Shown in pieces: positions 3,001-63,415 of a stretch of 64,000 nucleotides of DNA. This DNA comes from Spirochaetota bacterium (lineage in GTDB: Bacteria; Spirochaetota; UBA4802; UBA5550). The notes beneath the pieces are model-generated. The model was not told the origin of the DNA. It did not search any database and worked only from the letters and a program-made list of their open reading frames with translations. The stretch covers positions 691,440-755,439 of the forward strand of contig JAGNKX010000001.1 of NCBI GenBank assembly GCA_017999915.1, in the 5' to 3' direction. A program made the translations under genes and the position numbers. Each line of letters starts with the position of its first letter. The first letter of the stretch is position 1.

Positions 3001-3244
3001 CGAGGTGACGAAGAACAACGCCTATGATGAGTACACGCCCTTTGTCCATATCGAACGGTGGGACAACAGGATGGTTTATTTCTTTACGGATTTGAAAAAG
3101 AATGAGATCTACGAAGTGGCGTATATCGTCAGGGCCGAGCTGCCAGGAAATTTCATGGTGAAGCCGTCCCGGATGGAATGCATGTACGAGCCGTCCATCC
3201 AGGGATGGTCGGCACCGGTTGTGGTTGATGTGGAGAAGAAATAG
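2..3244 (+). CDS. Alpha-2-macroglobulin family protein, C-terminal about 1072 aa. The reading frame is open to the window edge and the N-terminus lies upstream of the window.
   Basis: Long ORF open from position 2. Canonical thioester motif GCIEQ (YPYGCIEQTLNSF). Size and domain order are consistent with bacterial A2M (YfhM-like). Confidence 0.85.
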   Translation, partial: YADNNGIAVLRLHAGNYPYDREITCEATVVDRSNVSISSSNKVRVGRGEYYIKIEPSQHFFSSGEKKPVIIRTLTHTGRPHGAKVKVELFRYIWKPWERVYVHDAKPLFSEQVSTDSQGIATVNLPKEFSFYGEFDLVVNGVDRKDNVITASRVIWIYSLEGARVASRFKNLELSVNATELAKPGEITCLIKSCFTDAYVCVTLEGRDVYESKVIKMTGNIMPVQFTIKTEYAPNLFVTATMQRKRALYTSSAGISLPVHDTALAISIEPDKQKYLPGEKASVLLKAVDGNGKPARADLSLAAVDEAIFQVRYDHTPLMRDYFYTKISNWVLTSYSYPITMLAGAAKDGKVKVREKFEDTAFWSAKIRTGEDGTARVNFTLPDNLTTWRLTVRGHDQAGRMGEKKTTFLVTQDLIARIGKPRFMVEGDTLSLIGIVNSNTERGLKKVDTIFKADDRVLEADEAVTISLPAFGSARTYYPYKVPKDRKEVTLQYSARSIGDARDALKLTVPVERRGTPFKLYGIGDMAVNRTVTVTPLAETDDFSFVPESVTVSLSPSPIIQMLRATKYLSEYPYGCIEQTLNSFIPNLALNRMLKQKGYGRFINEKAKKKLDDKVSAGIDRIQRYQNDDGTWGWWSGSRGNAFVTGYVLYSLRLAQEAGFTVDKPVVTRGLTAVQRYFSNPKLEEWDAVAYLMYINALWGRWDHEIFKKIIKVKDPGTYRTACLVKALALARAHPKLTDDMRSEINAMAPRLVDLLLQSARKDGCGIYWESRGNDRWSWPGGDTEITAHVLSALIGAGDRSTVPAQIVRSLCSRSRGDAWNSTKETATVMIALCGYLEAMGGPAVTRGAVRFSLDGKKIADISYDLEDPKVMENLTRKIQLEGGNARNSFTVTAEGEAGSDVSFDVVIGGTLYFKDKGALSLIRSEERGIRSLSNGISITRTFASITRVRDSRNNEYMVPQSLAGKKVIQIGDELLVKVKFQAQDDFQYLVLEDYLPSGFEVTKNNAYDEYTPFVHIERWDNRMVYFFTDLKKNEIYEVAYIVRAELPGNFMVKPSRMECMYEPSIQGWSAPVVVDVEKK

Positions 3245-3255
3245 GGAGACACCAT

Positions 3256-3278
3256 GTCCCCGCCACTGAGGCGGGGAC
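3256..3278. other. Stable 9-bp stem-loop (GTCCCCGCC-actga-GGCGGGGAC) immediately after the A2M stop codon, with no U-tract.
   Basis: Perfect inverted repeat read directly from the sequence. It is followed by an A-rich stretch, not a T-rich one. Confidence 0.4.
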
Positions 3279-3300
3279 ATGAAAAAAATATGGAGTACCG

Positions 3301-3516
3301 ATGAAACCAAAAACTATCGCCATTATTGTTGGGACCATTTTGCTGACTATTCTGATATTCCAGAATACCCATTCAGTCGTGCTGAATATCTTCTTCTGGG
3401 AGCCGGATTTTCCCCTGATCGTTTTGATCGTCATCGTCCTGGGAATAGGTTTCGGACTCGGCTTTTTCGCGAAAAATATCAGCGCCGTGGCGCAGAAGAA
3501 AGGCGAAGATTATTAA
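3301..3516 (+). CDS. Small inner-membrane protein, LapA/YciS-like (DUF1049).
   Basis: 71 aa with two predicted TM helices. The N-terminal pattern KxIAIIVGxILLxILIFQN resembles the LapA family. Confidence 0.5.
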   Translation: MKPKTIAIIVGTILLTILIFQNTHSVVLNIFFWEPDFPLIVLIVIVLGIGFGLGFFAKNISAVAQKKGEDY

Positions 3517-3565
3517 TTAATGTCCGATCCGGTGAGCCCCGGTTAAGCCGAGAACAGATATCCCA

Positions 3566-5632
3566 ATGAACAAGTGCCCGGCCATATTCCTTTTGCTGTT
3601 TATCATGTTCCCGGTCTATCCGGCAGGAGCGGAAACTGATAATGATAAGCCTGTGACCATACAGATACTATCCAAGCAGGTCAGGCTGTTGAAAAGCGGC
3701 GCCATTAAAAGAATCTCCATTTCGGTAACGCATGGCGCCACGGTAAGGGATGAAAACCATAGGGTGATAGATGGGAAAACCATAAGTTGTTCCGTCACTG
3801 CCGGAATGGTTGGCTTGTTCATAGATGACAGGCCCCTGGCGGGATCCGGAAAACTGGATATCGCACCCGCTCCTGAAAAAGACGACATCGTGATCCATAT
3901 CGACGGAGAGGCGAGAAGGTATCCTCTCCCCCTGTCGGTCCGTTTTGGCGATAACAGCCTGATATTCACTGTACAGGAGAATCTAAACCGGTACGTCGTT
4001 GATTCGTCCCTGGCAGAATACAGCGGCGATTATTGGAAAGAAAGGGAAGGTATCCTCGCCCTGGCCCAGGTGATACGGGCCCGATATCATTTCTCCAAAA
4101 AAAATCCCCGCCACGGCAACGCGGATTTCTGCGACCTCACCCACTGCCAGGTGTACAGGGGCAGGATGAACAGCGCCATTTCTTTCCATGACGACTGGGT
4201 CATCGATCATCAGAAGCTGCGGCACAACCTCTTCTTTCACTCCCGGTGCGGAGGGAGGACCTTCGACCCCGGCGTTTTCAGGGGGAAAGCGATTTCCGCC
4301 GGCAATAACAGCCCTGGCGTAAGGGACTGGCTCTACCGCAAGGGAACCCGGCTTTGTTCCGCCAAGGATTCCCGCTGGGAGCGCACCATAGGCAATGATG
4401 AATTGGCCGGGATACTTTTTCCCGGGAAAGTGAATGATGGCAACGCATCACTGTCGCTTCGATACGACAGGGACATCATGGTGGTTGAGGTCATCACGCC
4501 ATCGGGAAAGACATCTTTCCCGGTTGAGACGTTCAGGCTTAAAATAAACAGGGTCAAGGGATGGAACTTTATCCGCAGTAACAGCTTTACCGTATCAGAG
4601 AAAACGACTGATAACGAGAGGCTTTTCCTTTTCAGGGGAGAGGGACTCGGTCATGGAACTGGCTTATGCCAGCATGGGGCCATGGCCCTTTCCCGGCTCG
4701 GATATAACAGGTACGAAATACTGGAACACTATTTTCCCGATCTTCAGTTTCAAAGCCCGGAAACAGAGGGGGAGTTGTCACCTTATTGCTCGTACTGTCT
4801 TTTTGATGTTTCCACGGGAAAGGTTTTAAAGTCAACTCAGGGCGAGGCCTTTTTGTCGAGAACCGTTCCGCCGGGATCGCTATTTAAGGTCATCGTCGCG
4901 CTGTATCTTGCCGCCGAGCGGCCCGATATATTTTCTGATTACGCCTATCCGTGCACAGGAAGGAATGTGAATGATCCGAACCTTCCCGACCGCTGCTGGA
5001 GGCCCAAAGGCCACGGGACGGTACGGCTCAAGGAGGCCCTGCCCAACTCATGTAACCTCTATTTCAGCTCACTCTATAAAAACATATCTCAAAAAAAATT
5101 CAGGGCATTTTATCAGAATTTCTGCGGGTCCCTGGGTATCAGGCAGCCCCTGCCGGAGACCGCAAACGACAGGCAATGGGCGGAGCTCCTGGCAGGTCTT
5201 GATTTCAGGATGTCATTTACCATTGGCGATTTGATCAAGCTGGCGCGCTACTGTTATTGCGGCAACGGTGAAGTGAGAGATCAATCAGTTCCAGGAATTC
5301 CTGTCCCCTATCAGGAAAGATTGAAGCTATTCCAGGGATTGCGGGATACCTTTGCCCATGGCACGGCTTCCGAACAGAAAAAACGCTCGGGCCCTTCCTG
5401 TAATTATATTTCTCTTGAAAACCCAAGTGAAAAAAAATCCAACATGCCTTTAACTGGTCTCTGGGGAAAAACAGCCACTGTCCTGGATGGCACCAATACG
5501 CCGTTGAGCTATGGCCTATTCATGGGCGGGAACGGCGCCACCGGCGTTATTGTTGTGTTGAGAAAAGGCACGGGCAACATGGCTTCCCGATGGGCGCGGA
5601 AAATCCTCGGCCAGGAAAAAAGAAACGACTGA
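3566..5632 (+). CDS. Secreted fusion protein: SpoIID/LytB (lytic transglycosylase-like) domain plus a C-terminal PBP/beta-lactamase-like transpeptidase domain.
   Basis: Signal peptide present. SpoIID signature residues RHGNADFCDLTHCQVYRG and GEGLGHGTGLCQHGAMALSRLGY. Downstream are SxxK (SLFK), SxN (SCN) and KTG-like (KGTG) motifs. Confidence 0.7.
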   Translation: MNKCPAIFLLLFIMFPVYPAGAETDNDKPVTIQILSKQVRLLKSGAIKRISISVTHGATVRDENHRVIDGKTISCSVTAGMVGLFIDDRPLAGSGKLDIAPAPEKDDIVIHIDGEARRYPLPLSVRFGDNSLIFTVQENLNRYVVDSSLAEYSGDYWKEREGILALAQVIRARYHFSKKNPRHGNADFCDLTHCQVYRGRMNSAISFHDDWVIDHQKLRHNLFFHSRCGGRTFDPGVFRGKAISAGNNSPGVRDWLYRKGTRLCSAKDSRWERTIGNDELAGILFPGKVNDGNASLSLRYDRDIMVVEVITPSGKTSFPVETFRLKINRVKGWNFIRSNSFTVSEKTTDNERLFLFRGEGLGHGTGLCQHGAMALSRLGYNRYEILEHYFPDLQFQSPETEGELSPYCSYCLFDVSTGKVLKSTQGEAFLSRTVPPGSLFKVIVALYLAAERPDIFSDYAYPCTGRNVNDPNLPDRCWRPKGHGTVRLKEALPNSCNLYFSSLYKNISQKKFRAFYQNFCGSLGIRQPLPETANDRQWAELLAGLDFRMSFTIGDLIKLARYCYCGNGEVRDQSVPGIPVPYQERLKLFQGLRDTFAHGTASEQKKRSGPSCNYISLENPSEKKSNMPLTGLWGKTATVLDGTNTPLSYGLFMGGNGATGVIVVLRKGTGNMASRWARKILGQEKRND

Positions 5633-5655: not shown

Positions 5656-6240
5656 TCAGGCGGATAACAATTTCAGCGCGTCCTTGATTATGGATTCAAC
5701 TGGACTGTCGGGCTTGTTTTTTAGCAGCTCTTCAACGATCTTGGATGATTTGGCGTCGTCAAAACCGAGTGTGACCAGGGCTTCGATGGCGTCATTTTTA
5801 TGAGTTTGCGGGGCATCAATCTGCCCTGAAAGGGTTGTCAGCTTCTTTAATTTCCGCTTCAGCTCAAAAATGAGCTTTTCGGCTTTGGCGTTTCCTATGC
5901 CGGGAATCTTCGTCAGAAGGGCCGTGTTTTCCGATTGGACTGCGTCAACGAGGCGGTTTATGGTTATTCCTGACAGGATGGATATGGCCATGGCAGGCCC
6001 TATGCCGGTTATGTTCAGCAGAATTGAAAAACACTCCTTCTCGTTTTCCGTAAAAAAGCCAAATAGCTTGAGTTGGTCTTCCTTGTGATGTGTGTGGACG
6101 TATAGAACAACATCGGTATGGGACTGAATTTTTTCATAGGTTGATAGGGGAATGGTTAATCCATAGCCCACGCCCTGGACGTCCAGGATAACTTCTGTCG
6201 GCTTAAGCTCGTCTATGGTTCCGCGTATTTTTGATATCAT
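5656..6240 (-). CDS. ruvA: Holliday junction ATP-dependent DNA helicase subunit RuvA.
   Basis: N-terminus MISKIRGTIDELKPTEVILDVQGVGYGLTIP and overall 194-aa architecture are typical of RuvA. Confidence 0.9.
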   Translation of the reverse strand: MISKIRGTIDELKPTEVILDVQGVGYGLTIPLSTYEKIQSHTDVVLYVHTHHKEDQLKLFGFFTENEKECFSILLNITGIGPAMAISILSGITINRLVDAVQSENTALLTKIPGIGNAKAEKLIFELKRKLKKLTTLSGQIDAPQTHKNDAIEALVTLGFDDAKSSKIVEELLKNKPDSPVESIIKDALKLLSA

Positions 6241-6386
6241 ATATGAATGTAAACCGTTTATGATAGATTTTCAGTTTTTTAAGAATTAACTAATATAGTT
6301 CTCTTATACAATAAAAAAAGAAATTTTTAGATTTTTTTTGATTTTTTCACAATTTCAGTGGCCAAATAAGTTAATATTTATTATAT

Positions 6387-6421
6387 TTAACTAAACAGTT
6401 AGTTAAACTAAATAGTTAGTT
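6387..6421. promoter_or_regulatory. Two adjacent inverted repeats AACTAA-N4-TTAGTT (centres 17 bp apart) 10-45 nt upstream of the tetR start: candidate TetR operators. A third partial copy lies near 6286-6300.
   Basis: Palindromes read directly: TTAACTAAacagTTAGTTAA and AACTAAatagTTAGTT, in the AT-rich divergent promoter region between ruvA and tetR. Confidence 0.4.
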
Positions 6422-6433
6422 AACAAGGTATAA

Positions 6434-7042
6434 ATGGAAGATACGACTGAAAAAAAGATAAAAAATGCCGCCCTGCGCGAGTTTGCCCAACATGGTCTGG
6501 AAGGAGCCAGGGTGGACCGCATTGCCCAGAAAGCGAAAATAAACAAGGCCATGATCTATTATCATTTTAAAAGCAAGGAAGATCTGTATGAATCGATCTT
6601 GATAGAATTTTACAGTAAAATCTTTCCGCGGGTAGCAGGCAATATTTCAAAAGACAAGGGTGTTGAAGAACAGCTGGAATCCATCGTTACGTTTTTCATT
6701 GATTTCATCAAGGAAATGGATCAGGATTATATCAGGGTTATGCTCAGGGAGCTCTCCAGCGGCGGCAAGTATTTCAAAAAACTTATGCTCCCCAATGTCA
6801 TCATCCCCATGATGGGGCTAGTTCAGGAGCTTTTTACCGCAGGCATCAAGCAGGGAACATTCAAAAATATCGTCCCCCATTTAACTTTTATCCAGATGCT
6901 CGGATCAATCGTTTTTACCAACGCCATCCGCATAACCCTCTCTGATACTGATTTCGGGAAAATGATATTCAATGATGATTTCTTTGAAGAGTATAAGAAG
7001 AACATGCTGACAGTGGTAAAGACCGGGATCATGGCATCGTAA
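6434..7042 (+). CDS. TetR/AcrR family transcriptional regulator (YbiH-like).
   Basis: N-terminal HTH with the MIYYHFKSKEDLY motif. Position is immediately upstream of the efflux genes. Confidence 0.85.
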   Translation: MEDTTEKKIKNAALREFAQHGLEGARVDRIAQKAKINKAMIYYHFKSKEDLYESILIEFYSKIFPRVAGNISKDKGVEEQLESIVTFFIDFIKEMDQDYIRVMLRELSSGGKYFKKLMLPNVIIPMMGLVQELFTAGIKQGTFKNIVPHLTFIQMLGSIVFTNAIRITLSDTDFGKMIFNDDFFEEYKKNMLTVVKTGIMAS

Positions 7043-7057
7043 GGAGGAATCAGGAAT

Positions 7058-8479
7058 ATGAAATATAAAGCCTTATCAATAATCGCATTGTTCGTTGGAT
7101 TGGCACTATCAGATCCTATTCCCATCCGGGGTGAAGGGGCTCTTAAAAAGATCACCCTCGACGATGCCGTGTCCATCGCGAAAAAGAACAACCATGATTA
7201 TAAAATCGCCCTTCAGCGGCACAAGGCTGAATCCGAGAAGGTCAACCAGGCGTGGGGCATGCTCCTGCCGGTCATTGAATCGGAAGCCTCATTGACAAGG
7301 CAGGGGGCCCAGTCCGGATTCATGAGCATGGCCGAAGGCCAGTATGATATCAAGATAGTGCAGGTCAAGTTCGGCATCAATCCTGGCATGTTTTATCATT
7401 CCCTGCAGATGTCACGAAAGGCCTACGCCGTTTCCACGGAGGAAATGAGGAAGGTGAAAAGCGATATAGAATTCAACGTGATCGAAAGTTATTTCAATCT
7501 CATCCTTGCCGAAGAGATGATATCGATACGAAAAGACACGATCAAGCTTCTTCAAGAGAATCTTAAAGATGTGACCAGCCTCTTCAAGACCGGCAGCGTG
7601 CCCCGGTACGAGCTCCTCCAGGCACAGGTACAGCTGAAAAGCCAGGAGCCTTTGCTTCTGGAAGCCGAGAACCGGTACCGCCTGGCCCTGGAGATGTTCA
7701 ATTACCAGCTGGGTCTCGATGAACGGGTATATGCCGCTGACCGGAGCATCATTGAAAAAGACAACTACCGCGTGGCGGAGAAGGATATCGATTCATTCAT
7801 CCAGCGCGTTGGCGCCATTGCCCTGAAAAACAGGCCGGAGATCATCCAGCTCAAGATGAAGAAGGAGATAGCCGGTCATGCCAAGAACATCACCGATTCC
7901 TATTACCTCTGGCCGACCTTCATGGCCGGGGGATACTACGGGTATAACATGCCGCTTACCACGGTCGGCGAAAAGCTTCTCCCCACTTCCAATGGAGGCG
8001 CTACGTACATGGACCTGTCGCAGATCGCGGGGGAGCGGAAATGGCAGCCCAACTGGATGATACGCGTCGCGGCCACGTACCGGTGGAGCGCCCTGCTTCC
8101 CGTTGATTCCACCCGCGCCCAGGGCCGGGAAGCCAGGGCGCGGGGCCTCGAAGCCGAAGAGGAGATCGCCAAGGTGAAGCGCCTGGTGACCATTTCCATA
8201 AAATCATCCTATTCCAATATACTGACTGCAAACCAGACCATATCGTCCCACCGGGAGAATGTCGACAAGGCCAAAGAGGGGCTTCGCATAGCCCGCGAAA
8301 GCTACCGTGCCGGCGTCATTAAAAACTCCGAACTCTTCGGAGCGCAGGTTGCCCTTACGCAGGCTCAGGCCGGGTATATAAACGCCGTCAACAGCTACTA
8401 CCAGTCCCTGGCAAAACTGCGAAAGGATATCGGCACTGACGATGACAGCATAATTTTCGGAGGAGAAGAACATGAATAA
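7058..8479 (+). CDS. TolC-family outer membrane efflux protein.
   Basis: Signal peptide, 473 aa, coiled-coil/beta-barrel repeat organisation, and operon context with HlyD and ABC genes. Confidence 0.8.
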   Translation: MKYKALSIIALFVGLALSDPIPIRGEGALKKITLDDAVSIAKKNNHDYKIALQRHKAESEKVNQAWGMLLPVIESEASLTRQGAQSGFMSMAEGQYDIKIVQVKFGINPGMFYHSLQMSRKAYAVSTEEMRKVKSDIEFNVIESYFNLILAEEMISIRKDTIKLLQENLKDVTSLFKTGSVPRYELLQAQVQLKSQEPLLLEAENRYRLALEMFNYQLGLDERVYAADRSIIEKDNYRVAEKDIDSFIQRVGAIALKNRPEIIQLKMKKEIAGHAKNITDSYYLWPTFMAGGYYGYNMPLTTVGEKLLPTSNGGATYMDLSQIAGERKWQPNWMIRVAATYRWSALLPVDSTRAQGREARARGLEAEEEIAKVKRLVTISIKSSYSNILTANQTISSHRENVDKAKEGLRIARESYRAGVIKNSELFGAQVALTQAQAGYINAVNSYYQSLAKLRKDIGTDDDSIIFGGEEHE

Positions 8480-13472: not shown

Positions 13473-13636
13473 GGCTTTGGGAAAGACTTTTCATTTTTTC
13501 CTTGAATTATGATTTAAATCATATGCTGATGGTTTCATGATCGGAAGGATGAAGCATTGGTTCGGTCGCGGAAATCTTCACCGCTGGGTTGAGCCGTTTC
13601 CGTTCCGATACGGCAATGAGAATTGATCGGAGTACT

Positions 13637-14440
13637 ATGTCCCTGGCATTTTCAAAAGATGATTTCATGTTTTTCAAGGATCTCCTGATCGAGGCCGGCA
13701 CAGCCGCGCGGAAATTACAGAAAGATACCATCACCGTCACGAGAAAATCAGACCGGTCCATTGTCACTCAGGCTGACCTCATGGTGCAGGATTTGCTGAT
13801 GAAAAGGATATCAGCGCGCCATGGCGATTACATGTTTATCATGGAAGAAAACAATTCCGGCGCCTCACCCGATATTAGCGATGATACCGTCACGGTCGTA
13901 ATCGATCCCATTGACGGCACGGCCATGTTCAGCATGCACCTTCCGGAATGGTGCGTTTCTGTGGGCATATTCAGGGGGAGAATGCCGGTTTACGGATTCG
14001 TGTATTCCCCGGGGTGCGACATGTTTTTTTACAATGACGACAACGGCGCCTACTTGAATGACCGGCCCGTGCGCGCGGACCGGACCATCTCGATCGACAA
14101 TGAAACAAATATCTTCGTTGCATCCGAGGCCGGCAGCAGGTTCGACATTCTTTTTCCCGGTAAGATCAGGAACCTTGGGTCTACGGCGCTGCACGCCTGC
14201 CTTGCCGTAGATAATGTCCGCAACAGGACCCTTGCCTTTATCGGCAAGTCCCGCCTCTGGGACTGGGCCGGCGCAATGCCCATCATCCGTAAAGCCGGCT
14301 GCATGATGAAGTATATCAGCGGAGAGGATGTCGATGTTCAAGAAGTGATCCGCAATGATTACCGGCTTCTCGATTATGTCATTGTGTACAACTCGGATGA
14401 TTTTGAATCCGTGCGGAGTATTTTCAGAAAACGACAATGA
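13637..14440 (+). CDS. Inositol monophosphatase family protein (IMPase, or 3'(2'),5'-bisphosphate nucleotidase-like).
   Basis: Motifs VVIDPIDGT and WDWAGA. The start is ambiguous between 13589 and 13637. Confidence 0.75.
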   Translation: MSLAFSKDDFMFFKDLLIEAGTAARKLQKDTITVTRKSDRSIVTQADLMVQDLLMKRISARHGDYMFIMEENNSGASPDISDDTVTVVIDPIDGTAMFSMHLPEWCVSVGIFRGRMPVYGFVYSPGCDMFFYNDDNGAYLNDRPVRADRTISIDNETNIFVASEAGSRFDILFPGKIRNLGSTALHACLAVDNVRNRTLAFIGKSRLWDWAGAMPIIRKAGCMMKYISGEDVDVQEVIRNDYRLLDYVIVYNSDDFESVRSIFRKRQ

Positions 14441-14495
14441 CATACGACCAGGATTAATGCCTGCTGATCGTAGCGCACACAAAACATTATGCGAC

Positions 14496-14528
14496 AAAAT
14501 ACCCTGCAGGATGCCGCGGGGTATTTTG
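14496..14528. terminator. Rho-independent terminator-like hairpin flanked by A- and T-tracts (AAAATACCCTGCAG-gatgcc-GCGGGGTATTTTGTT).
   Basis: 7-bp stem including one G·U pair, then TTTTGTT. Lies 56 nt after the IMPase stop. Confidence 0.55.
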
Positions 14529-14712
14529 TTATTGGCGATCGGCTTCTTATTCAAAAAAAACCAAATGAATTTTTCCTATTTATAAATTCCTGTTTCGTCC
14601 CTGAGAAAATAACTGGAAAAAGTGAAAAGTGTATATGGTCGATTAATATGTTGACATTAATATACAGCGGATTGATCCTGACCCAAGTTGAGTTTCTGTT
14701 TAGGATGAGAGT

Positions 14713-15192
14713 ATGCCACGGCCCAGAATTTTCGGTTATTTAGCTGTATTGTTCGCACTGATACTTACGGGATTTTTCATATATTCCTTGATGGCTGTGA
14801 TGAATGACAATATCAATTACAGCCATGTTGATTTGAACGCATTGAGTTCATTCACATTCTACGCCATCGCAGCCCCAATCGGATTAGTGTCTATGGTCGT
14901 CATCGGAACCGGATTCTGGATCGGCTGGACAATTCTCGCAATAAAGGTGGTGCCACCAATGCCTGAGATAGTTGAAAAAAAAGATTTTTCCAAGATCAAA
15001 GCCTTTTTCATGTGTATCATTACACTCGCTCTGGGAGTCCTTCTCATTTACGGCCTGTATATCAGGAACTTCTGGGCGCTGGCGATACCCGCAGCGGTCA
15101 TTTGCATCGTGATACTTGGCGCAGTGTTATGGGTCGGGATCGCCATCATAACAACTCGTTCAACGCTGCCTGAAGAGAAGCAACAGTCTTAA
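14713..15192 (+). CDS. Hypothetical polytopic membrane protein (about 4 TM helices).
   Basis: ORF with strongly hydrophobic segments and coding-like composition. Confidence 0.5.
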   Translation: MPRPRIFGYLAVLFALILTGFFIYSLMAVMNDNINYSHVDLNALSSFTFYAIAAPIGLVSMVVIGTGFWIGWTILAIKVVPPMPEIVEKKDFSKIKAFFMCIITLALGVLLIYGLYIRNFWALAIPAAVICIVILGAVLWVGIAIITTRSTLPEEKQQS

Positions 15193-15198
15193 TTATTC

Positions 15199-16437
15199 AT
15201 GAAGGTTTTGCTGTTATGCTACCGTGGCAGTCCCTTTTGCGGAGGCCTCGGTATTTATCTTTATTATCTGAGCCGCGAGCTGGCACGAATGGGTGTTGAA
15301 ATCGATGTTGTCGTCGGGCCGCCCTATCCGGACCCTATGGAAGAATGGGCCGCGGTTCATAAAATCGAGAACCTAAATATCTGGATGGTGAAGACGAAGA
15401 AATTCGGGTACGATCGGCTGAAGCGCGTCTACTCACTTTGGAATTTCGTCGATTATATCCTGACCCGTTTTCATATTTTTCCTGAAATGGAAACATTCAG
15501 CATCAGGGCTTTTTTCAAGATTCGCCGGCTTTTAAAGAAGCGGACCTATGACATCATCCATGATGTCAACGGCCTTGGATGGGGCCTTCTGTTCATGAAG
15601 GGTTTCGGCATACCGGTCATATCCACCATACACCACCCCCTGACACGCGACCGCGATGCCGATTTGATGATGGACAAGGATTTCTGGGGACTGGTCACGA
15701 CGGTGTTGTTCTATCCCCTGATGATGCAGCGCTTTGTCATCAATCGCCTCGACAGGATCATCACATCATCCAATGAGGGGATCGATGAACTGAAGCGGGC
15801 CTTCGGTTTGAGCAGAAAAAAGGTATCCGTCGTATATAACGGCATGGACGTGGAAAGCTTCAGGAACACCGGCGAAAAACGGGACACCAGCACCATACTC
15901 TTCGTGGGTAACACCGAGGATCATAAGAAAGGGATCCTCTTTCTGCTGGAGGCCCTTGCTGAGCTCCCCGAGGGCATAGGGCTGACCATCGTTGACGAGG
16001 GGCCGCCGCTGAAAAAGAACGCCGCTGAGCTGATACGGAAGGTCGGCGTGGAGAAGCGCGTGACCTTCACCGGCAAGGTGGACCAGAAGACGCTGGTGAG
16101 CCTTTATAGCAGGGCCGCGGTCCTGGTCATGTCGTCCCTGTACGAGGGTTTCGGTCTGCCGGCGGCCGAGGCCATGGCCTGTGAAACGCCGGTAGTCGTC
16201 ACCAGGGCCGGCGCCCTTCCGGAAGTGGTGGACACGTCATGCGGGGTCCTGGTGGAGCCCGGCAACGCGAAGGCCCTCAGGGACGCCATCATGGGCGTTC
16301 TCAAGGACGCCGATGCACGAAGGCGGATGGGCAAGAACGGAAGGAAAAGAGCCGAGGATAATTTTTCCTGGCCCGTGGCGGCGAGGAACACTCTTGAAGT
16401 ATACCGTGATGTTATCAACAAGTACAGGAGAGCATAA
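15199..16437 (+). CDS. Glycosyltransferase, family 4 (GT-B fold).
   Basis: C-terminal EGFGLPAAEAMACETPVV (the E-x7-E GT4 motif) and an N-terminal Gly-rich loop CGGLGIY. Confidence 0.85.
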   Translation: MKVLLLCYRGSPFCGGLGIYLYYLSRELARMGVEIDVVVGPPYPDPMEEWAAVHKIENLNIWMVKTKKFGYDRLKRVYSLWNFVDYILTRFHIFPEMETFSIRAFFKIRRLLKKRTYDIIHDVNGLGWGLLFMKGFGIPVISTIHHPLTRDRDADLMMDKDFWGLVTTVLFYPLMMQRFVINRLDRIITSSNEGIDELKRAFGLSRKKVSVVYNGMDVESFRNTGEKRDTSTILFVGNTEDHKKGILFLLEALAELPEGIGLTIVDEGPPLKKNAAELIRKVGVEKRVTFTGKVDQKTLVSLYSRAAVLVMSSLYEGFGLPAAEAMACETPVVVTRAGALPEVVDTSCGVLVEPGNAKALRDAIMGVLKDADARRRMGKNGRKRAEDNFSWPVAARNTLEVYRDVINKYRRA

Positions 16438-17681
16438 TGAAAATATGTCTGTTAAGCTATCGTGGTAATCCGTATTGCGGCGGACAGGGAATCTATGTCA
16501 TGTACATAGCGCGCGAGCTGGTGAAACTGGGACACGAAGTGCACGTCATTGCCGGTCCTCCCTATCCCTTTGACGAGGAAGGCGTTATCATTCACCGGGT
16601 GAGCAACCATAACTATTTCAATAAGAAAAAGGATTTCATAAAGCCCCATAAGCCCTTCGCGACCCTCCAGCCCCTGAATTTTTATGAATTCGTCGCCGCC
16701 AAGATGGGTATCTTTCCTGAAATTGAAACATTTTCCGTGCGCGCATTTTTTAAATTGAAAGAGCTTCTTAAAGAGCACAAGTATGATATCATTCACGACA
16801 ACCAGTGTCTTGGATACGGGTTCCTCCTGATCCAGAGGCTGGGAGTTCCCTTTATATCAACGATACATCATCCCCTCTCCATTGACCGCTCCACCTGGTT
16901 CGAGTATCCCTCGGATTTCAATATCAAGATGAGGCGGATCCTGTACTATCCGTTGCTGATGCAGAAATTTGTCGCGAACCGGATGAATCGGATAATAACC
17001 GTCTCTCATAACGCGGCCCTGGAAATAAACAAGGCCTTCGGGGTCAACCAGAAGAAGATCAACGTCATTTACAACGGGATGGATTCGAGCCTTTTCTATC
17101 CCGTCAAGGGCGTGCAGAAGAAGAAAAACAGCATTATTTTCGTCGGCAATGTCGAGGACAGGAAGAAAGGCGTTATTTATCTCCTGAAAGCCATGACCCT
17201 GACCAAGCACAAGGTAAGCCTTACTATCGTCGACGGCGGGGCCCCCAACCGGAGCACGGTCCCGAACCTGATCGACAAGTTCGGCCTCAACGGCCGGGTG
17301 ACCTTCACCGGAAAGATCCCCATTGACAAGCTGATACGTCTCTATTCCAGGAATGAGATAGCCGTCCTCCCGTCCCTCTACGAGGGGTTCGGTTTCCCGG
17401 CGGCCGAGGCCATGGCCTGCGAGCTTCCCGTTCTGACCACGACAGCGGGAGCCCTCCCTGAAGTGGTGGGGGAGCACATGAAGACCGGATACCTGGTGCC
17501 GCCCCGCGACGCCGAAGCCATAGCCGAGGGCATAGATTTTCTCCTGGATAACCCCGATCTCCGCAGGGAGATGGGCAAGGCTGCGCGGAAACGGGTCCTT
17601 GAAGTCTTTACCTGGGAGAACGCGGCCCATGAGCTGGTCGCCATGTACGAAGAGGTGATCAATGCTCACCGTGGACTTTGA
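16437..17681 (+). CDS. Glycosyltransferase, family 4; paralog of the preceding gene.
   Basis: Parallel motifs CGGQGIY and EGFGFPAAEAMACELPVL. Adjacent to the previous gene with no gap. Confidence 0.85.
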   Translation: MKICLLSYRGNPYCGGQGIYVMYIARELVKLGHEVHVIAGPPYPFDEEGVIIHRVSNHNYFNKKKDFIKPHKPFATLQPLNFYEFVAAKMGIFPEIETFSVRAFFKLKELLKEHKYDIIHDNQCLGYGFLLIQRLGVPFISTIHHPLSIDRSTWFEYPSDFNIKMRRILYYPLLMQKFVANRMNRIITVSHNAALEINKAFGVNQKKINVIYNGMDSSLFYPVKGVQKKKNSIIFVGNVEDRKKGVIYLLKAMTLTKHKVSLTIVDGGAPNRSTVPNLIDKFGLNGRVTFTGKIPIDKLIRLYSRNEIAVLPSLYEGFGFPAAEAMACELPVLTTTAGALPEVVGEHMKTGYLVPPRDAEAIAEGIDFLLDNPDLRREMGKAARKRVLEVFTWENAAHELVAMYEEVINAHRGL

Positions 17682-18363
17682 CAGGCTCACTGTCAGAAAG
17701 GGCGACATCGTTCTTGACGCGGGATGCGGATTCGGCCGGCATTCCCTGGAGTTTGTGTCCCGCGGCGCCACCGTGTACAGCATGGACATGGACATGGAGA
17801 GCCTCCGGAAGACCCGCTTTTCCCTGACCCAGATGAAAAAGCATGTCAAGGGCGGCGAGGTGCGCTACCTTGTCCATTCCGGTGACGCCCTGAAACTCCC
17901 CTTCAAGGACGAATCCTTCGACAGGATCATCTGTTCCGAGGTCATGGAGCATGTCAGGGATGACGACCTGGCCTGCCGGGAGCTGTCGCGCGTACTCAAG
18001 AAAAACGGCAGGATCGCCATAACCGTGCCGACTGTTTTCAGCGAGCACATGTATAATCTTCTCACCTATGAATACTATACCTCGCCGGGGGGCCATATTC
18101 GTAATTATTTTCCCGGCGACCTCGCGGCCATGATGAGGCGAAACGGCATGGAAGTGTATGCCATAGGGTTCAAGCACTCCTTCCATACCATCTGGTGGAT
18201 GATCCGGTCCGTGGTGGGGCTTCACCTGAGCGACCATCCCCTGACAAGGGCCTACCACAAGTTTCTTCACCTGGGGCTTTATTCAAACATGGTCAGGAAA
18301 GCGGAGTCCTTCTTTGATTATTTTTTCCCTAAGAGCGTGGTCATCTACGCCTGGAAAAAATAG
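17662..18363 (+). CDS. Class I SAM-dependent methyltransferase.
   Basis: SAM-binding motif VLDAGCGFGRHS and acidic loop. Overlaps the upstream GT4 by 20 nt. Confidence 0.8.
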   Translation: MLTVDFDRLTVRKGDIVLDAGCGFGRHSLEFVSRGATVYSMDMDMESLRKTRFSLTQMKKHVKGGEVRYLVHSGDALKLPFKDESFDRIICSEVMEHVRDDDLACRELSRVLKKNGRIAITVPTVFSEHMYNLLTYEYYTSPGGHIRNYFPGDLAAMMRRNGMEVYAIGFKHSFHTIWWMIRSVVGLHLSDHPLTRAYHKFLHLGLYSNMVRKAESFFDYFFPKSVVIYAWKK

Positions 18364-18479: not shown

Positions 18480-21122
18480 ATGGTATCAATGAAACGTATC
18501 GTTGTTGCAATTATTGTCTTGATGTGCTGGACCGCGTCGGAAGGGGCCAAGCCGTACCGGGGTAGAAAGATCAACCTTTTCGGCAATTCGGCTGAGTCCC
18601 TCGCCCGGGCCGGGACGGGTGTGACATCGTCAGGGACCGAGCAGTTTTATCTGAATCCCGCCTCCATCGCCGATTCCGAGCGGATCGGGGCAAGCTTCCA
18701 GTACGGGTCCCTTCCATTGCCCACGAAATACTACGATGGCGGATTTTCCCTGGCCGTACCGACCTCATACGGCGTATTCGGGGGTTTCTTCCGATACATG
18801 AAGTTCCCCGGCAGCGCCATTGATATCAAGGAAGGCTACAGCGTGAGCGTGGGAAGCGCCCGTGACCTGACGAGGCAGCTGATGCTGGGCTTTTCCCTGA
18901 ATTTTGTATACGGGAAGAACGGCGGAAAATCGTTTTACACCGGCGGGAATCTCGGGTTCATTTATAAATTCCCCGGCACGGCAGCGCGCTACGGCTTCTG
19001 TATCCATGACCCGCGGATAGGTTTTTCTGTCAATTTCGGGTATCCCTTTGGCAGCCATCGCAGCTATGCGGATATGAATGCCATCACCCTCGGTTACAGC
19101 TTCAAGTTTTTCCATATCAAGCAGTTCTCGCTTGGATTATATAATGATTTCACGGTGCTCAATTATCGGGACTTCCCTCTTAAATTCGGCATTGAATCGG
19201 AGATCTTCAATATTCTTATCATCAGGGGGGGCTATGTGATCCCCCATGCCTATAACAGCGGAAACTTCACCACAGGATTCGGTCTGAAAATCGATACGGA
19301 GAGTTTCAAGGGCTCCCTGAATTATGCCCTCAACTTTTATCCAAACATGAAGTACACCCATTATATCGGCGTCAATTTTGAATATGGCAAACTGGACCGG
19401 GAACCTCCCGAAACGGAGATCGGGGCGGATAAAAACGATATCTCTCCCAATCATGACGGGTCGAAAGACTACGTCCTGTTCAATCTCAGCGTCTTTGACA
19501 GGAGCAGGATAAAGGGATGGAAGCTCCAGATCATGGATGCCGGATCCCAGATCATCAAGGATTATTCCATATCGGAACGGGACATCAGCGACCGGCTCTC
19601 CGCACAGGAATTTTTTAAAAGGCTTTTTAAAAAGCGTGAATCGATGGTCGTTCCCGAAAGGATTATCTGGGATGGCACCGATGTGAAAGGGAAAACCGTG
19701 CCCGACGGCAGATATGGCTATTCCTTTACGGCATGGGATGAAAAGGACAATATTGCGGCCACGAAATCAGGTTATGTCTATGTTGACAATACTCCACCCG
19801 AGGTTGTCCTGGAAAAAAGCGACGATCTGTTTTCGCCCAATAAGGATGGCAGGAAGGATATCTATACGATTGTGCAGAAAATAAAATCATCGCCCGAGGA
19901 TGAATGGTCTGCCTGTTTTAAAGATTCACAGGGGAATGTGGTCAAGAAATACAGCTGGGCAGGCAATGCCGTGCCGGCCCGTGTCGTATGGGACGGGAAG
20001 ACCGATTCAGGCGATGACGCTCCCGAGGGCCTGTACAGCTATTCCATCTCCTGCGCTGATAATGCCGGCAACAGGGCCCATGCGGACATCAACTCCATCA
20101 CGCTTACCCGTAAATATGAGATCGCCGACATCACCCTGACACCGGAGTATTTTTCTTTCGCCAAAGAGACGCCCTTGAAAATATTCCCGGCCCTGTCAAG
20201 CACGCACGGCCTCGTGGAGTGGAAAATCCTCATACAGAATGCGGGAATGAAGATTATAAAAGAAATCAGCGGGACGAATTCGATCGACAAGATGCTGACC
20301 TATGATTGCACCGACAAGGACGGGGCGCGTCTCAATGACGGCGTGTATTATGTCAGGTTCATCGCCGTGTTCAAGAGCGGCAACACGCCTGAGTCCTTTA
20401 ACAAGATGTTTACCGTGGACAGCACCCCGCCGAAGCTTTCGGTATCTCATTCGCCCTCCCTGTTTTCGCCTGACGGGGACCGTGAAAACGACCTGTTGAA
20501 GATTGAGCCATGGGCGAAAGACAGCACGGGGATTAAAAGCTGGAGGATCATCGTCTATGATTCATCCGGTGAATCCTTCAAGACATTCTCCGGCAACGGC
20601 GCCGTTCCCGGGGAGATTCTCTGGGACGGTCTCGGGGACACCCTGGACATCGTCGAATCAGCCGCTGATTACACCATCGTTCTCGAAGCCACGGACATGG
20701 CCGGGAACAGGGGGGTATCCTCTCCGGACCGTCTGGAAGTGGACGTGCTGGTCCTGGTAACCGAGCGGGGGCTGAAAATAAGAATCAGCAATATCGAATT
20801 TCCCTTCGGCAGCAATGAAATCAAGTACAAGGGAAAGGTGATCCTTGACCGGGTCTTTCAGATACTGCAGAAGTATGAGAGCTATGACGTCCTCATCGAG
20901 GGACATACCGACGACATCGGCAAGGAAGAGTACAACCTCGAGCTCTCGGAGCGAAGGGCAAAAGCGGTGAACGACTATCTTCTGGGAAGGGGTATACCTC
21001 CTGACCGGCTGAAATATGTGGGAATGGGGGAGACGGTGCCGCTCTATCCCAATGACAGCGATGAGCATCGGCGGCGCAACCGCCGTGTTGAATTCATGCT
21101 GATCAAAAGGGTCGCCGAATAA
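18480..21122 (+). CDS. OmpA-family outer membrane protein: N-terminal beta-barrel (PorP/SprF-like FYLNPA motif), tandem FlgD-Ig-like repeats, and a C-terminal OmpA/MotB peptidoglycan-binding domain.
   Basis: Signal peptide. Repeated motifs SPNHDGSKDY, FSPNKDGRKD and FSPDGDREND. C-terminal GHTDDIG...NRRVEF, typical of OmpA_C. Confidence 0.8.
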   Translation: MVSMKRIVVAIIVLMCWTASEGAKPYRGRKINLFGNSAESLARAGTGVTSSGTEQFYLNPASIADSERIGASFQYGSLPLPTKYYDGGFSLAVPTSYGVFGGFFRYMKFPGSAIDIKEGYSVSVGSARDLTRQLMLGFSLNFVYGKNGGKSFYTGGNLGFIYKFPGTAARYGFCIHDPRIGFSVNFGYPFGSHRSYADMNAITLGYSFKFFHIKQFSLGLYNDFTVLNYRDFPLKFGIESEIFNILIIRGGYVIPHAYNSGNFTTGFGLKIDTESFKGSLNYALNFYPNMKYTHYIGVNFEYGKLDREPPETEIGADKNDISPNHDGSKDYVLFNLSVFDRSRIKGWKLQIMDAGSQIIKDYSISERDISDRLSAQEFFKRLFKKRESMVVPERIIWDGTDVKGKTVPDGRYGYSFTAWDEKDNIAATKSGYVYVDNTPPEVVLEKSDDLFSPNKDGRKDIYTIVQKIKSSPEDEWSACFKDSQGNVVKKYSWAGNAVPARVVWDGKTDSGDDAPEGLYSYSISCADNAGNRAHADINSITLTRKYEIADITLTPEYFSFAKETPLKIFPALSSTHGLVEWKILIQNAGMKIIKEISGTNSIDKMLTYDCTDKDGARLNDGVYYVRFIAVFKSGNTPESFNKMFTVDSTPPKLSVSHSPSLFSPDGDRENDLLKIEPWAKDSTGIKSWRIIVYDSSGESFKTFSGNGAVPGEILWDGLGDTLDIVESAADYTIVLEATDMAGNRGVSSPDRLEVDVLVLVTERGLKIRISNIEFPFGSNEIKYKGKVILDRVFQILQKYESYDVLIEGHTDDIGKEEYNLELSERRAKAVNDYLLGRGIPPDRLKYVGMGETVPLYPNDSDEHRRRNRRVEFMLIKRVAE

Positions 21123-21904
21123 TGTACCTGGTCTTTTCCGACCTGGACGGCACGCTTCTTGATCATGACACCTATGAGTATCATGGAGCCCGGGAAGGAC
21201 TGGCCCTTTTGAAACGGCGCGCCGTTCCTCTCATCCTGGTTTCCAGTAAGACGCTGGTGGAGATGGAAACCCTGCACCATGAGTTGAATCTGGAGGGGCC
21301 CTTTATATTTGAAAACGGCGGCGGTATTGTGTGGCCCGAAGCAAGGAAAGACCCCGAATATATCGGGACGGCCGCTTCTGAGCTGAAGGAAAAGAGAACG
21401 GTCCTTGAAGCGCTCCTGGGAGAGACGGTCCTGTTCATCACGGACATGGACGTTGAAGAGATAATGAAATGTACCGGACTTTCCAGAGAAAGGGCGCTCC
21501 TGTCAAGGAAGCGATTGACATCCCTTCCCTTCCTTGTACCATCAGGAAGAAACATTTCCGGGGAAGATCTGGAGAGGATCAATGGCGATTTGATCAGGAT
21601 GGGTTTGTCGATAACAAAGGGCGGCCGGTTCTACCATTTCCTCTCGGCAAGGTCGGACAAAGGATCGGCTATAATGCGGGTTATTGATTATTACAGGGAT
21701 AGACATGTAGCCGGGATCGTGACAATCGGCATCGGGGACAACGAAAATGACGTTCCCATGTTCAGGGTCGTGGATATTCCCGTTGCGGTAAGACGAAAGG
21801 ACGGAACAATAATCGGGACTGCCATGGACAATATCAGAAAAATGAAGGGAACGGGACCGGAAGGCTTCAGTAAGGCGATCCTGTCTATCATCGGCGATAA
21901 TTGA
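21122..21904 (+). CDS. HAD-IIB hydrolase, mannosyl-/glucosyl-3-phosphoglycerate phosphatase-like (YedP/MpgP family).
   Basis: N-terminal LVFSDLDGTLLDHDTYEY and SSKT motif, closely resembling the MPGP family. The ATG overlaps the upstream TAA. Confidence 0.8.
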   Translation: MYLVFSDLDGTLLDHDTYEYHGAREGLALLKRRAVPLILVSSKTLVEMETLHHELNLEGPFIFENGGGIVWPEARKDPEYIGTAASELKEKRTVLEALLGETVLFITDMDVEEIMKCTGLSRERALLSRKRLTSLPFLVPSGRNISGEDLERINGDLIRMGLSITKGGRFYHFLSARSDKGSAIMRVIDYYRDRHVAGIVTIGIGDNENDVPMFRVVDIPVAVRRKDGTIIGTAMDNIRKMKGTGPEGFSKAILSIIGDN

Positions 21905-21990: not shown

Positions 21991-22449
21991 ATGAAATCTC
22001 TCATAAACGCTCTCATTGGCGTAATCACATGGGTGTTCAATGTGTTAAGGCAACTGTGCCGCAAGCTGCTTGAACATTTCATGGAGATTAACATATGCGA
22101 AAAAGCGATAGTGATCAGCACCATCATCGCCTTTGCGGCCGTGGTCGCTCCCATGGCGCGGTACCGCATATTTGATGTTTATTTTTACATCAATAACCCG
22201 ATTGCCCATTATATGGTGGGGATCGTTCTGGTCATGATCGTTACCGTATACATCCCGGGCCTTATTGCCATGGCAATTCGTGTCATCCTGAATATTCTGT
22301 ACCTGGTTGATGTTATCTACCTTCAGGCAGCTCATGAAATCAGCAAGGCGCCCTACGAAGTGACAGTGGGGTATTATTTGAATATTATCATTGCCCTGGT
22401 CTATATCGTGCTTTCGCTGGGAAGCTTTTTTCTTTTTCGTGAATCTTAG
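21991..22449 (+). CDS. Hypothetical membrane protein.
   Basis: 152 aa with 3-4 hydrophobic helices. No recognisable motifs. Confidence 0.45.
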   Translation: MKSLINALIGVITWVFNVLRQLCRKLLEHFMEINICEKAIVISTIIAFAAVVAPMARYRIFDVYFYINNPIAHYMVGIVLVMIVTVYIPGLIAMAIRVILNILYLVDVIYLQAAHEISKAPYEVTVGYYLNIIIALVYIVLSLGSFFLFRES

Positions 22450-24590: not shown

Positions 24591-24680
24591 CAAGTAACCG
24601 GTATTGAATTCAATGGTAAGTCTTTACGGATAGGGCTCAATAGCGTATATAACGAAAATAATAAAAAGATCAAGAGATAA

Positions 24681-24711
24681 AAAAAGACGGCCCAACGGGC
24701 CGTCTTTTTTT
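24681..24711. terminator. Bidirectional rho-independent terminator (AAAAAGACGGCCC-aac-GGGCCGTCTTTTTTT) between the convergent htpG and the outer-membrane protein gene.
   Basis: Perfect GC-rich hairpin flanked by A5 and T7 tracts. Confidence 0.75.
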
Positions 24712-24730
24712 ATCAATTTGTTTTTGATAG

Positions 24731-26236
24731 TTAGAAGGTGAAGGCAGCGGAAGTATGGTACCGGTGATCGATGGCGCTGCCAAGATCGCCTTTCCATTTG
24801 GTCTGGTGGCGGGCATATTCAAATCCGACCCAGACATAGTCATTGAGGAACCACTGTGCCGATCCATTGATTGTTTCGTTCCAGAGGATATTGCCGAAGG
24901 CGATATTCCTGGTGTTGCTTTTCATGCTTCCGCCGTAACCGGCTACCAGCAGGATCGGAATCGGGCCGATCTTTCTCAGGTCGAACTGAACCTGGGCATA
25001 GCCGCCCTGCATCTTTACGCCGAGAATTTTTGTGCTCGAGAGATTCTCAACAGTGCCCTGGCCAAGGCCGCAGGTGAAGGAGTCCATGTTGACGCCGCGC
25101 CAGTACGCGCCGACGAAGGTGACAAGGGATATTTGGATTTTTCCGAAAGCATGAGCCGCATAGGACCTTGTCAGCCGTGCCCATCTCTGGTTTAACAGCG
25201 CGGCTTGAACGGCAGTAATGGGAGCGCCGGTTCCCCAGAGATTCCTGTTTGCTATGTTGTTAAAAGTCAAGGGGTGTCTTTCCCACTGATAATGGCCGCT
25301 GCCTCCCAGTGTCATGCTGAATATATCGTTCGGCTTTATTGTGAAGTAGAGGCGGGCGCGACCGCCGGGGAGCTTGCTTGCCTCGCCGGGTCCGCGGTTG
25401 TCAGCCTGGCCGCCATTAACGCCGGGATACAGGTCGGTGGCTGTGCCGGTATCGGCGCCGCTCAAGACCCGCGCCGCGGCCAGGTCCAGCACTAAATTGT
25501 AATTGTCATTGCCGAATTTCTGGCCGAACCATATCATCGGCTCCCGGATAAAGATGTTGCCGTTCTCGCCGTAAGGAACGTAGGTCAGGGTTGCCGGCGC
25601 TGCCGGTATCGACATGGTCACACCCCAGGTCTGGCCGAAAACAAGGTACGCGGAATACATGTCGGTCTTCCAGTCGAGTTGTAAATAACCGTGGCGGATC
25701 ATCGGTATCCCCTGGCGGGCGCCGGAACCGGAAACGGCTGTGCCGCCCCAGAAGTCTATTTCGACGTTTGCCTTTGTGTCAGCTCCGATCGCTTTGGGTC
25801 CGGTGAGGTTGAGGCCCAGGCGGGAGGTGCGCATGTCGATTACAAATGAACCGTCCCTTTGGGCTGCCGTCTTTTTCAATGAAATAAGAGGCGTTCCTAC
25901 GGTACCGGTTGTTAATATGGCGGTAGGCGCAGTAGGATTCAGATAGAGCACCTGGTTCTCAACACGGAACGGTCCTGATTCATTGAAAACATCGTTTGAA
26001 TTGTAAACCATGTCCATCTTGACAAAGCCATAGAGCTGAACTTTAAAATATTCGCCATTGAAGAGCATTATCTTCTCTTTGCCTTTCGGTTTTTCGGCTT
26101 TGACGGGTTCAATCAGTTCTACGCCTTTCTTGTCCTGGGCCTTCTTATCCTGCGGTTTTGCCTGCGCGAACAGGGCGGTTGTTGAAAAAATGAATGCCGC
26201 AAGGAGGAAAAGCCCGAAAATTCGGTTTTTAAGCAT
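24731..26236 (-). CDS. Outer membrane beta-barrel protein (porin-like), hypothetical.
   Basis: Signal peptide, alternating amphipathic beta-strand pattern, and C-terminal aromatic residue (…AFTF). Confidence 0.7.
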   Translation of the reverse strand: MLKNRIFGLFLLAAFIFSTTALFAQAKPQDKKAQDKKGVELIEPVKAEKPKGKEKIMLFNGEYFKVQLYGFVKMDMVYNSNDVFNESGPFRVENQVLYLNPTAPTAILTTGTVGTPLISLKKTAAQRDGSFVIDMRTSRLGLNLTGPKAIGADTKANVEIDFWGGTAVSGSGARQGIPMIRHGYLQLDWKTDMYSAYLVFGQTWGVTMSIPAAPATLTYVPYGENGNIFIREPMIWFGQKFGNDNYNLVLDLAAARVLSGADTGTATDLYPGVNGGQADNRGPGEASKLPGGRARLYFTIKPNDIFSMTLGGSGHYQWERHPLTFNNIANRNLWGTGAPITAVQAALLNQRWARLTRSYAAHAFGKIQISLVTFVGAYWRGVNMDSFTCGLGQGTVENLSSTKILGVKMQGGYAQVQFDLRKIGPIPILLVAGYGGSMKSNTRNIAFGNILWNETINGSAQWFLNDYVWVGFEYARHQTKWKGDLGSAIDHRYHTSAAFTF

Positions 26237-38416: not shown

Positions 38417-38529
38417 CAAAGGAAGTCCGCCGGATAGTGAGATTCAGGGATGGCGGCGTGAAGTAATACTATTTGAAGCTTTGGAAATAATTTTAAAAAG
38501 TTAATTAATAATACAAGGAGCGCATTTCT

Positions 38530-63088: not shown

Positions 63089-63091
63089 GCC

Positions 63092-63415
63092 GTGGAACGT
63101 TGCATCATTGTTTATTGCACTGTTCCATCCCAAGAAGTGGGAATGAAAATAGCCGGGGATCTGGTTTCAGGGGGATACGCCGCCTGCGTCAATATTGTTC
63201 CAGGCCTTACATCGGTTTATCGATGGAAAGGGGATATCTGTAAAGATAATGAATTGCTTTTAGTTATCAAGAGCCGGGGTTCGCTCTTCGATGCGATTTC
63301 TTCACGGATAAAGGCAATGCATCCCTATGAAGTGCCTGAAATAATCTGCTATGATATAACCGGGGGGAGTGAACCCTATATACAGTGGCTTATAGATAGT
63401 ACTGCCTGTTTATAA
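63092..63415 (+). CDS. cutA: Divalent-cation tolerance protein CutA.
   Basis: 107 aa with the CutA1 pattern (…CVNIVPGLTSVYRWKG…ELLLVIKS…). Confidence 0.8.
   Translation: MERCIIVYCTVPSQEVGMKIAGDLVSGGYAACVNIVPGLTSVYRWKGDICKDNELLLVIKSRGSLFDAISSRIKAMHPYEVPEIICYDITGGSEPYIQWLIDSTACL

Follow-up and report, generated by a model that had tools for sequence, protein, structure and literature searches.

The window analysed here is a stretch of 64,000 nucleotides (64 kb) from a Spirochaetota bacterium (contig JAGNKX010000001.1 of assembly GCA_017999915.1, positions 691,440 to 755,439 of the forward strand), and all coordinates below are numbered from its first nucleotide. The gene under study spans exactly 18480..21122 on the plus strand and encodes a protein of 880 amino acids followed by a TAA stop codon, in which a signal peptide, an N-terminal β-barrel, a row of immunoglobulin (Ig)-like modules and an OmpA-like domain are predicted to follow one another. 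This open reading frame (ORF) represents a conserved gene rather than a chance occurrence. The identical protein (P0001) is present on three further public contigs, more than 180 homologues were found at E ≤ 1e-5, and about 80 homologues of 863-932 amino acids share 44-82% full-length identity with it. The frame opens with a pair of in-frame ATG codons, at 18480 and 18489 (MVSMKR...), and a ribosome-binding site cannot be clearly recognised upstream of them. Because the majority of homologues begin with MKR or MKK, the true start may be the second ATG, at 18489 (+), whose product would begin MKR....

Domain architecture of the 880-residue protein

The first 23 residues (MVSMKRIVVAIIVLMCWTASEGA; 18480..18548, +) have the hydrophobic profile and the sequence of a Sec-type signal peptide, with a helix at residues 3-17 modelled at a low predicted local distance difference test (pLDDT) score. 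Cleavage is expected after residue 23, and no lipobox cysteine is conserved across the family.

Residues 24-302 are predicted to fold into a FadL/PorV-type barrel with 14 strands, compact and plugged. In the AlphaFold model, a hatch or plug segment (residues 24-68; 18549..18683, +; pLDDT 85-92) is followed by the barrel proper (residues 69-302; 18684..19385, +), where all the connections between strands measure 9 residues or fewer according to DSSP, which makes it far more compact than FadL. A sequence search of the N-domain against the chains of the PDB returned chance-level matches only, and it was the fold search alone that identified the domain. The matches were PorV (6h3i_F; score 29.0 over 259 residues), FadL (27.3, with 255 of its 427 residues aligning), TodX (24.8 over 243) and a BAM complex subunit from Bacteroides (9hj3_F; 24.0 over 261). 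The model thus shares the fold of the solved PorV structure, together with the 14 strands and the NPA hatch of FadL and TodX. A structure prediction had been proposed as a check by an earlier sequence-only reading of this DNA, which likened the N-terminus to a barrel of the PorP/SprF type associated with type IX secretion systems (T9SS).

Membership of PorP/SprF was rejected. A Pfam scan of residues 1-313 gave no family match even at E ≤ 10, PorP_SprF (PF11751) included, and the same model matched none of 21 diverse family N-domains at E ≤ 1. Pfam PorV (PF19572), Toluene_X (PF03349), UPF0164 and OmpA_membrane likewise found no match in the 880-residue protein; among the 21 relatives, three matched Toluene_X weakly (best E=0.0016). 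The single meaningful NCBIfam match of the N-domain is to the PorV/PorQ model NF033709 (E=1.8e-9, model positions 10-325 of 326), with 37.7 bits against a cutoff of 90, and the N-domains of 14 of the 21 relatives match the same model, every one under the cutoff. The protein therefore falls under the PorV, PorP/SprF and FadL model cutoffs despite its PorV-like fold, and by sequence and predicted fold together the barrel is nearest to PorV/PorQ and FadL. Some barrel-family relatives do match UPF0164, a family that covers the FadL-like proteins of T. pallidum.

What stands of the earlier assignment is the superfamily, since PorP-like proteins are FadL-family barrels and share it with this N-domain (PMC9143113). 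Its clue, the string FYLNPA, is indeed present at residues 56-61 (18645-18662, +), within the hatch. It corresponds to the NPA hatch motif of FadL, where it is essential for gating (PMC8407342), and is therefore no identifier of PorP/SprF. N59 and A61 do not vary across 65 homologues, in which P60 reaches at least 90% conservation. In FadL a kink in strand 3 creates a lateral opening, and long extracellular loops make up a hydrophobic capture groove. The conserved PTSYG (residues 94-98) was considered as a candidate for this kink and dropped, since on the strand map its SY pair (96-97) is the two-residue turn between strands 2 and 3.

A linker, GKLDREPPETEI (residues 303-314; 19386..19421, +; family consensus LDREPPxTxI), joins the barrel to the Ig region and overlaps the first model strand of the first Ig module. 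The AlphaFold model places four tandem β-sandwich Ig-like modules after the barrel. Module 1 (residues 311-446; 19410..19817, +) carries SPNHDGSKD at 322-330 and is interrupted by a helix at 375-383; module 2 (447-553; 19818..20138, +) carries SPNKDGRKD at 452-460; module 3 (554-655; 20139..20444, +) is degenerate and without an SPNxD motif; and module 4 (656-762; 20445..20765, +) carries SPDGDREND at 663-671. The at least four FlgD-Ig repeats that had been read from the sequence are thus borne out as four modules, although the SP[ND]xD signature occurs in three copies only (residues 322, 452 and 663). FlgD_ig (PF13860) is matched in three stretches with 57.8 bits against a cutoff of 27, and CHU_C with 57.6 bits against 27. 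Module 2 provides the best stretch for both, and it also matches TIGR04131, the T9SS type-B sorting domain (42.2 against a cutoff of 35; residues ~449-534 of 880). This type-B-like module lies within the chain, whose C-terminus is occupied by an OmpA domain, so it cannot act as a C-terminal secretion signal. The FlgD_ig match designates a fold family and is no evidence for a flagellar role.

The OmpA-like peptidoglycan-binding domain occupies residues 763-880 (20766..21119, +), and here the sequence-only reading, which had proposed a canonical OmpA anchor with NRRVEF, was right. Pfam OmpA (PF00691) matches residues 774-868 (E=4.6e-23, 81.9 bits against a gathering score of 27.2), and NRRVEF lies at residues 867-872 (21078-21095, +). 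Of the three families that had been expected, FlgD_ig and OmpA thus score over their cutoffs and PorP_SprF does not appear. Upstream of NRRVEF, the stretch GHTDDIG...LSERRA (residues 808-827; 20901-20960, +) contains a TDD and an RRA that align with the TDR and RRA of the E. coli OmpA C-terminal domain and are at least 90% conserved in 65 homologues. The domain retains the aspartate and the arginine that contact peptidoglycan in OmpA-family proteins.

Fused, split and spacer-length variants in Spirochaetota

The combination of domains had been considered uncommon. It is not a one-off: alignments place the 880-residue protein in a conserved, uncharacterised family extending throughout Spirochaetota. 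All the named relatives belong to this phylum except one record labelled Lachnospiraceae, and several are labelled only 'uncultured bacterium'. The assemblies concerned include Leptospirales-like, Brevinematia, Spirochaetales, Treponema and Alkalispirochaeta ones, and most members come from environmental and gut metagenomes rather than from known pathogens. Among the carriers are the cultured Treponema primitia and Breznakiella homolactica, with about 8 Ig modules, and Alkalispirochaeta alkalica, with about 12. A literature search found no account of a barrel-Ig-OmpA architecture.

To follow the parts separately, hidden Markov models (HMMs) were built for the barrel, the Ig region and the OmpA domain and run on ORFs from all six frames of 86 loci. 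The form in which the three parts are fused is widespread among these loci. In about 20 Treponema/Spirochaetaceae loci the gene is split, with a barrel gene of 355-375 codons directly upstream of an Ig-OmpA gene of about 1,050 codons. The start and stop codons of most of these pairs overlap or lie no more than about 20 nucleotides apart, and each of the two proteins has a Sec signal peptide. The split falls at the exact domain boundary, so that the barrel protein ends in ...DTxPPxIxxW and the mature end of its partner begins with ...YISPNNDGVQDE; in the 880-residue protein this break point corresponds to the linker at residues 303-314. Barrel and Ig-OmpA region are therefore genetically coupled across Spirochaetota, either fused or as adjacent genes, and this pattern of fusion and fission argues strongly that the barrel functions together with the Ig-OmpA arm.

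The number of Ig modules varies by lineage and clusters at about 4, 8 and 12 in the genome loci. An exhaustive profile search for the barrel domain retrieved just 897 cluster representatives among 1.84 billion. Among the best 150 of these 897, 61 are barrel-Ig-OmpA proteins, a few have 1, 2, 5 or 6 modules, and three have the barrel joined directly to an OmpA domain, confirmed by Pfam, with no Ig module in between. Such direct fusions are as predicted for a tether with an optional spacer.

Eight N-terminal regions of long relatives were missed by the barrel HMM, and NCBIfam returned nothing for six of them; that of locus L034 gave a marginal PorV_fam match alone. At L018 (1587-4064), from a Spirochaetota metagenome-assembled genome (MAG), four Ig modules and an OmpA domain follow 275 N-terminal residues that match LipL45/Lsa33-type models and contain no barrel, which suggests that the membrane-proximal module may have been swapped in some lineages. 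At L016 (12615-13883), from a Brevinematia MAG, a 423-residue ORF with an OmpA-like domain lies directly downstream of the counterpart of the gene under study.

A candidate tether between outer membrane and wall

The reading that best accommodates these data is that the 880-residue protein is a long-armed tether of the OmpA type that links the outer membrane to the peptidoglycan wall, to which we assign a probability of roughly 60%. The barrel would be inserted in the outer membrane and serve mainly as a membrane anchor. Since barrels of this kind are even-stranded and end on the periplasmic side, both the Ig modules and the OmpA-like domain should be periplasmic. The length of an Ig module is about 4 nm, and the four modules would form a periplasmic arm of about 16 nm that spans the gap and sets the OmpA-like domain on the wall, which this domain would then hold. 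The number of modules, mostly 4, 8 or 12 depending on the lineage, would set the reach of the arm, and a variable reach would fit the periplasm of spirochaetes, which is wide and contains the flagella. Barrel proteins with an OmpA domain have been reported as the sole known type of outer-membrane tether in Spirochaetes, which lack Lpp and Pal. How the outer membrane is attached to the wall across a periplasm in which flagella rotate is poorly understood in these bacteria, and the family offers a concrete candidate that comes with a natural series of spacer lengths and with both fused and split gene forms.

Most likely, the protein is an undescribed variant of the known OmpA-type tether and not a part of the T9SS. 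Like E. coli OmpA, taken in the broad sense of a β-barrel plus PF00691, it carries an N-terminal barrel and a C-terminal peptidoglycan-binding domain on one chain. The classical definition does not apply, because the barrel of OmpA has 8 strands whereas the one predicted here has 14, is plugged and is of the FadL/PorV type. In place of the short linker of OmpA there is an Ig-like spacer of about 450 residues, whose length depends on the lineage, and two separate genes can take the place of the single one. If this reading is correct, the membrane anchor in a tether of the OmpA type can be provided by a FadL/PorV-type barrel. The N-domain resembles PorV (PDB 6H3I chain F) in fold; unlike here, PorV has no C-terminal extension, and the 880-residue protein scores under the PorV/PorQ cutoff and has no T9SS context among the window ORFs scanned. 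A precedent within the phylum may be found in TP0548, TP0859 and TP0865 of T. pallidum, 14-stranded barrels of the FadL type whose hatch bears NPA or NAA and which are extended at the C-terminus into the periplasm. Their extensions are α-helical, TPR-like bundles, not Ig modules and an OmpA domain. A stand-alone barrel of the PorV/PorQ family has also been noted in Brachyspira.

The closest functional parallel would be the complex of PorP, type-B cargo and PorE in Bacteroidota. PorP, a FadL-family barrel, binds PorE; PorE's OmpA C-terminal domain binds peptidoglycan, and PorE has been proposed as a bridge between PorP and the wall. The PorP-PorE-PG1035 system and the PorE-like/type-B cargo/SprF-like operons of F. 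johnsoniae have in common with the present family a 14-stranded FadL-family barrel, a β-sandwich similar to the C-terminal domain (CTD) of type B and an OmpA C-terminal anchor. That system consists of three proteins, the T9SS exports its type-B protein to the surface, and its PorE is a lipoprotein that contains TPR and propeller domains. The spirochaetal counterpart, in contrast, is made of one or two proteins, has no T9SS component among the window ORFs scanned and shows no PorP_SprF match. The parallel is one of function and common descent is not claimed, although a shared ancestor of the tether and the PorP/type-B CTD/PorE anchoring module is a possibility, and in this respect the family hints at a connection with the module that anchors type IX secretion to the wall.

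Several observations weigh against the tether. The NPA of the hatch is conserved family-wide, so the barrel could still transport something, a role that could coexist with tethering. The number of modules is not strictly quantised. The conserved downstream neighbour described below, a cytoplasmic sugar-phosphate phosphatase beside a gene for an envelope protein, is not accounted for by this reading. Finally, the sole studied relative, Lsa66 of Leptospira, has been reported as a surface adhesin, although it has no barrel and has lost the conserved aspartate of the OmpA-like domain.

A tentative and rather doubtful extension of the tether reading is that the family acts as a ruler of the spirochaete periplasm, in which a semi-rigid arm of 4, 8 or 12 modules fixes the distance to the wall and leaves room for the flagella. 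This would be analogous to E. coli, where the length of the tether Lpp sets the width of the periplasm.

Among the alternatives, the one that survives best, unlikely as it is, has the barrel import hydrophobic nutrients in the manner of FadL, for example long-chain fatty acids, with the Ig-OmpA arm doing no more than fixing the channel to the wall or passing the substrate on in the periplasm. The predicted fold and the conserved hatch are those of such importers. The loops of 9 residues or fewer nevertheless disfavour a FadL-style capture of substrate at the surface, and only 255 of the 427 FadL residues find a counterpart in this minimal barrel. Toluene_X is absent from the 880-residue protein and weak in three of 21 relatives. 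PorV and the FadL-like Bacteroides BAM subunit score similarly to FadL in the fold search, and PorV, likewise a plugged barrel, works as a shuttle in secretion and does not import fatty acids. Neither the variable spacer nor the direct barrel-OmpA forms would be explained by transport.

The comparison with Lsa66 raises a second alternative, namely that the protein is a surface adhesin whose Ig modules lie outside the cell and bind host or environmental matrix. The top NCBIfam model for the 880-residue protein is Lsa66_OmpA (NF053608), which aligns to residues 314-874 over model positions 21-579 of 581. Lsa66 itself (L. interrogans LIC10258) has been reported to be surface-exposed, with binding to laminin, fibronectin and plasminogen and labelling on live cells. 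Homology between the two proteins extends over the four Ig-like modules as well as the OmpA-like domain, Lsa66 having about four modules. The score of 267.8 bits is, however, far under the equivalog cutoff of 700, so that membership is not reached. Unlike the 880-residue protein, Lsa66 has no barrel: the model begins at the Ig region, and no barrel is found in the Leptospira protein or, as a separate gene, next to it. With a barrel ending in the periplasm on one side of the Ig modules and a wall-binding domain on the other, one chain cannot expose them outside. The Ig-OmpA proteins of the split form carry plain Sec signal peptides, and the members come mostly from environmental and gut metagenomes and not from known pathogens. 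Taken together, these points make an adhesin improbable.

The same comparison bears on Lsa66. In the Lsa66-like protein of Leptospira alstonii (L062, 5130-6899) GHTDDIG...LSERRA of the OmpA-like motif is replaced by SHSSHQG...GTEERA, with loss of the conserved aspartate. The loss of this residue and the missing barrel cast doubt on canonical wall binding by Lsa66, and on the sequence evidence they also raise doubts about its reported surface location. If the ruler reading proves true, Lsa66 would be a periplasmic remnant of the tether. The cellular location of this Leptospira vaccine candidate deserves a second look.

A role as an accessory of the periplasmic flagella, in which FlgD-like Ig modules and a MotB-like wall anchor would support a stator or a collar, is highly improbable, given that the matches are to generic folds and under equivalog cutoffs, that flagellar genes neighbour the gene in none of the loci examined, and that an outer-membrane barrel is no part of known stators. 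Scarcely credible is the association with the T9SS that the sequence-only reading had implied, here taken as a component or cargo in which a PorP/SprF-like shuttle is joined to a type-B sorting domain: besides the failed PorP_SprF and PorV_fam matches and the internal position of the type-B-like module, the literature confines the system to Bacteroidota or the FCB group, the named homologues are spirochaetal bar the Lachnospiraceae-labelled record, and no T9SS family was matched among ten other large ORFs scanned in the window, which include alpha-2-macroglobulin, penicillin-binding proteins and fatty-acid enzymes.

Genomic neighbourhood

The position of the gene inside a glycosyltransferase cluster had been found striking. 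Upstream of it lie an ABC-2 transporter and then a co-oriented block (13589-18363, +) with an inositol-monophosphatase-like gene, an ORF of 159 amino acids that matches no family, two GT4 glycosyltransferases and an S-adenosylmethionine (SAM) methyltransferase. The two GT4 genes and the methyltransferase are indeed directly upstream, and the best partial matches of the GT4 pair are to MshA, BshA and glycogen synthase types. The linkage is not conserved, however. The block is kept in relatives of 61-80% identity and at locus L004 (P0005, P0016 and L004 together covering 51-80%), and it is absent from all eight orthologue loci of 44-48% identity, one of which has unrelated genes on the opposite strand upstream. 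Because of this absence the glycosyltransferase setting is lineage-specific; it is probably incidental, and the linkage was rejected as a clue to function. Together with the phosphatase downstream, the block could constitute a pathway for a small glycoside or a compatible solute.

The gene immediately downstream encodes a phosphatase of the HAD-IIB type that belongs to the mannosyl-3-phosphoglycerate phosphatase family (21122..21904, +; TIGR01486, 202 bits against 164.75), whose ATG overlaps the stop codon of the 880-codon gene (TAATG). This phosphatase adjoins the gene in all close orthologue loci, even in those without the glycosyltransferases. It is followed by a hydrophobic membrane ORF of 152 amino acids (21991-22449, +) with no convincing family match, which is kept between the phosphatase and HtpG in several orthologous loci.

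A scan for promoters and terminators around the gene found no clear signals, and the sole strong terminator-like hairpin is located 3′ of HtpG. This hairpin (24676-24714) has an 18-bp stem with T-runs on both strands and lies between HtpG and a convergent ORF of 501 amino acids; from its sequence it looks like a bidirectional terminator. The 501-residue ORF (24731-26236, −) has no Pfam match, and at the corresponding position locus L085 has an ORF of 480 amino acids with a faint match to the DcaP porin.

At the start of the window, 26-5632 (+) encodes a bacterial alpha-2-macroglobulin (A2M, TED and MG10 domains) followed by a transpeptidase-domain protein, a pair that resembles the known A2M/PBP1C gene pairing. 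Two outliers in composition are the segments at 6001-8000, where the guanine-plus-cytosine (GC) fraction drops to 0.443, and at the end of the window (62001-64000), where it drops to 0.397 and the GC skew is 0.206. A further compositional outlier at 38001-40000 coincides with a MORN-repeat gene region (38530-40188), with a GC skew of 0.175 and an AT skew of 0.261.

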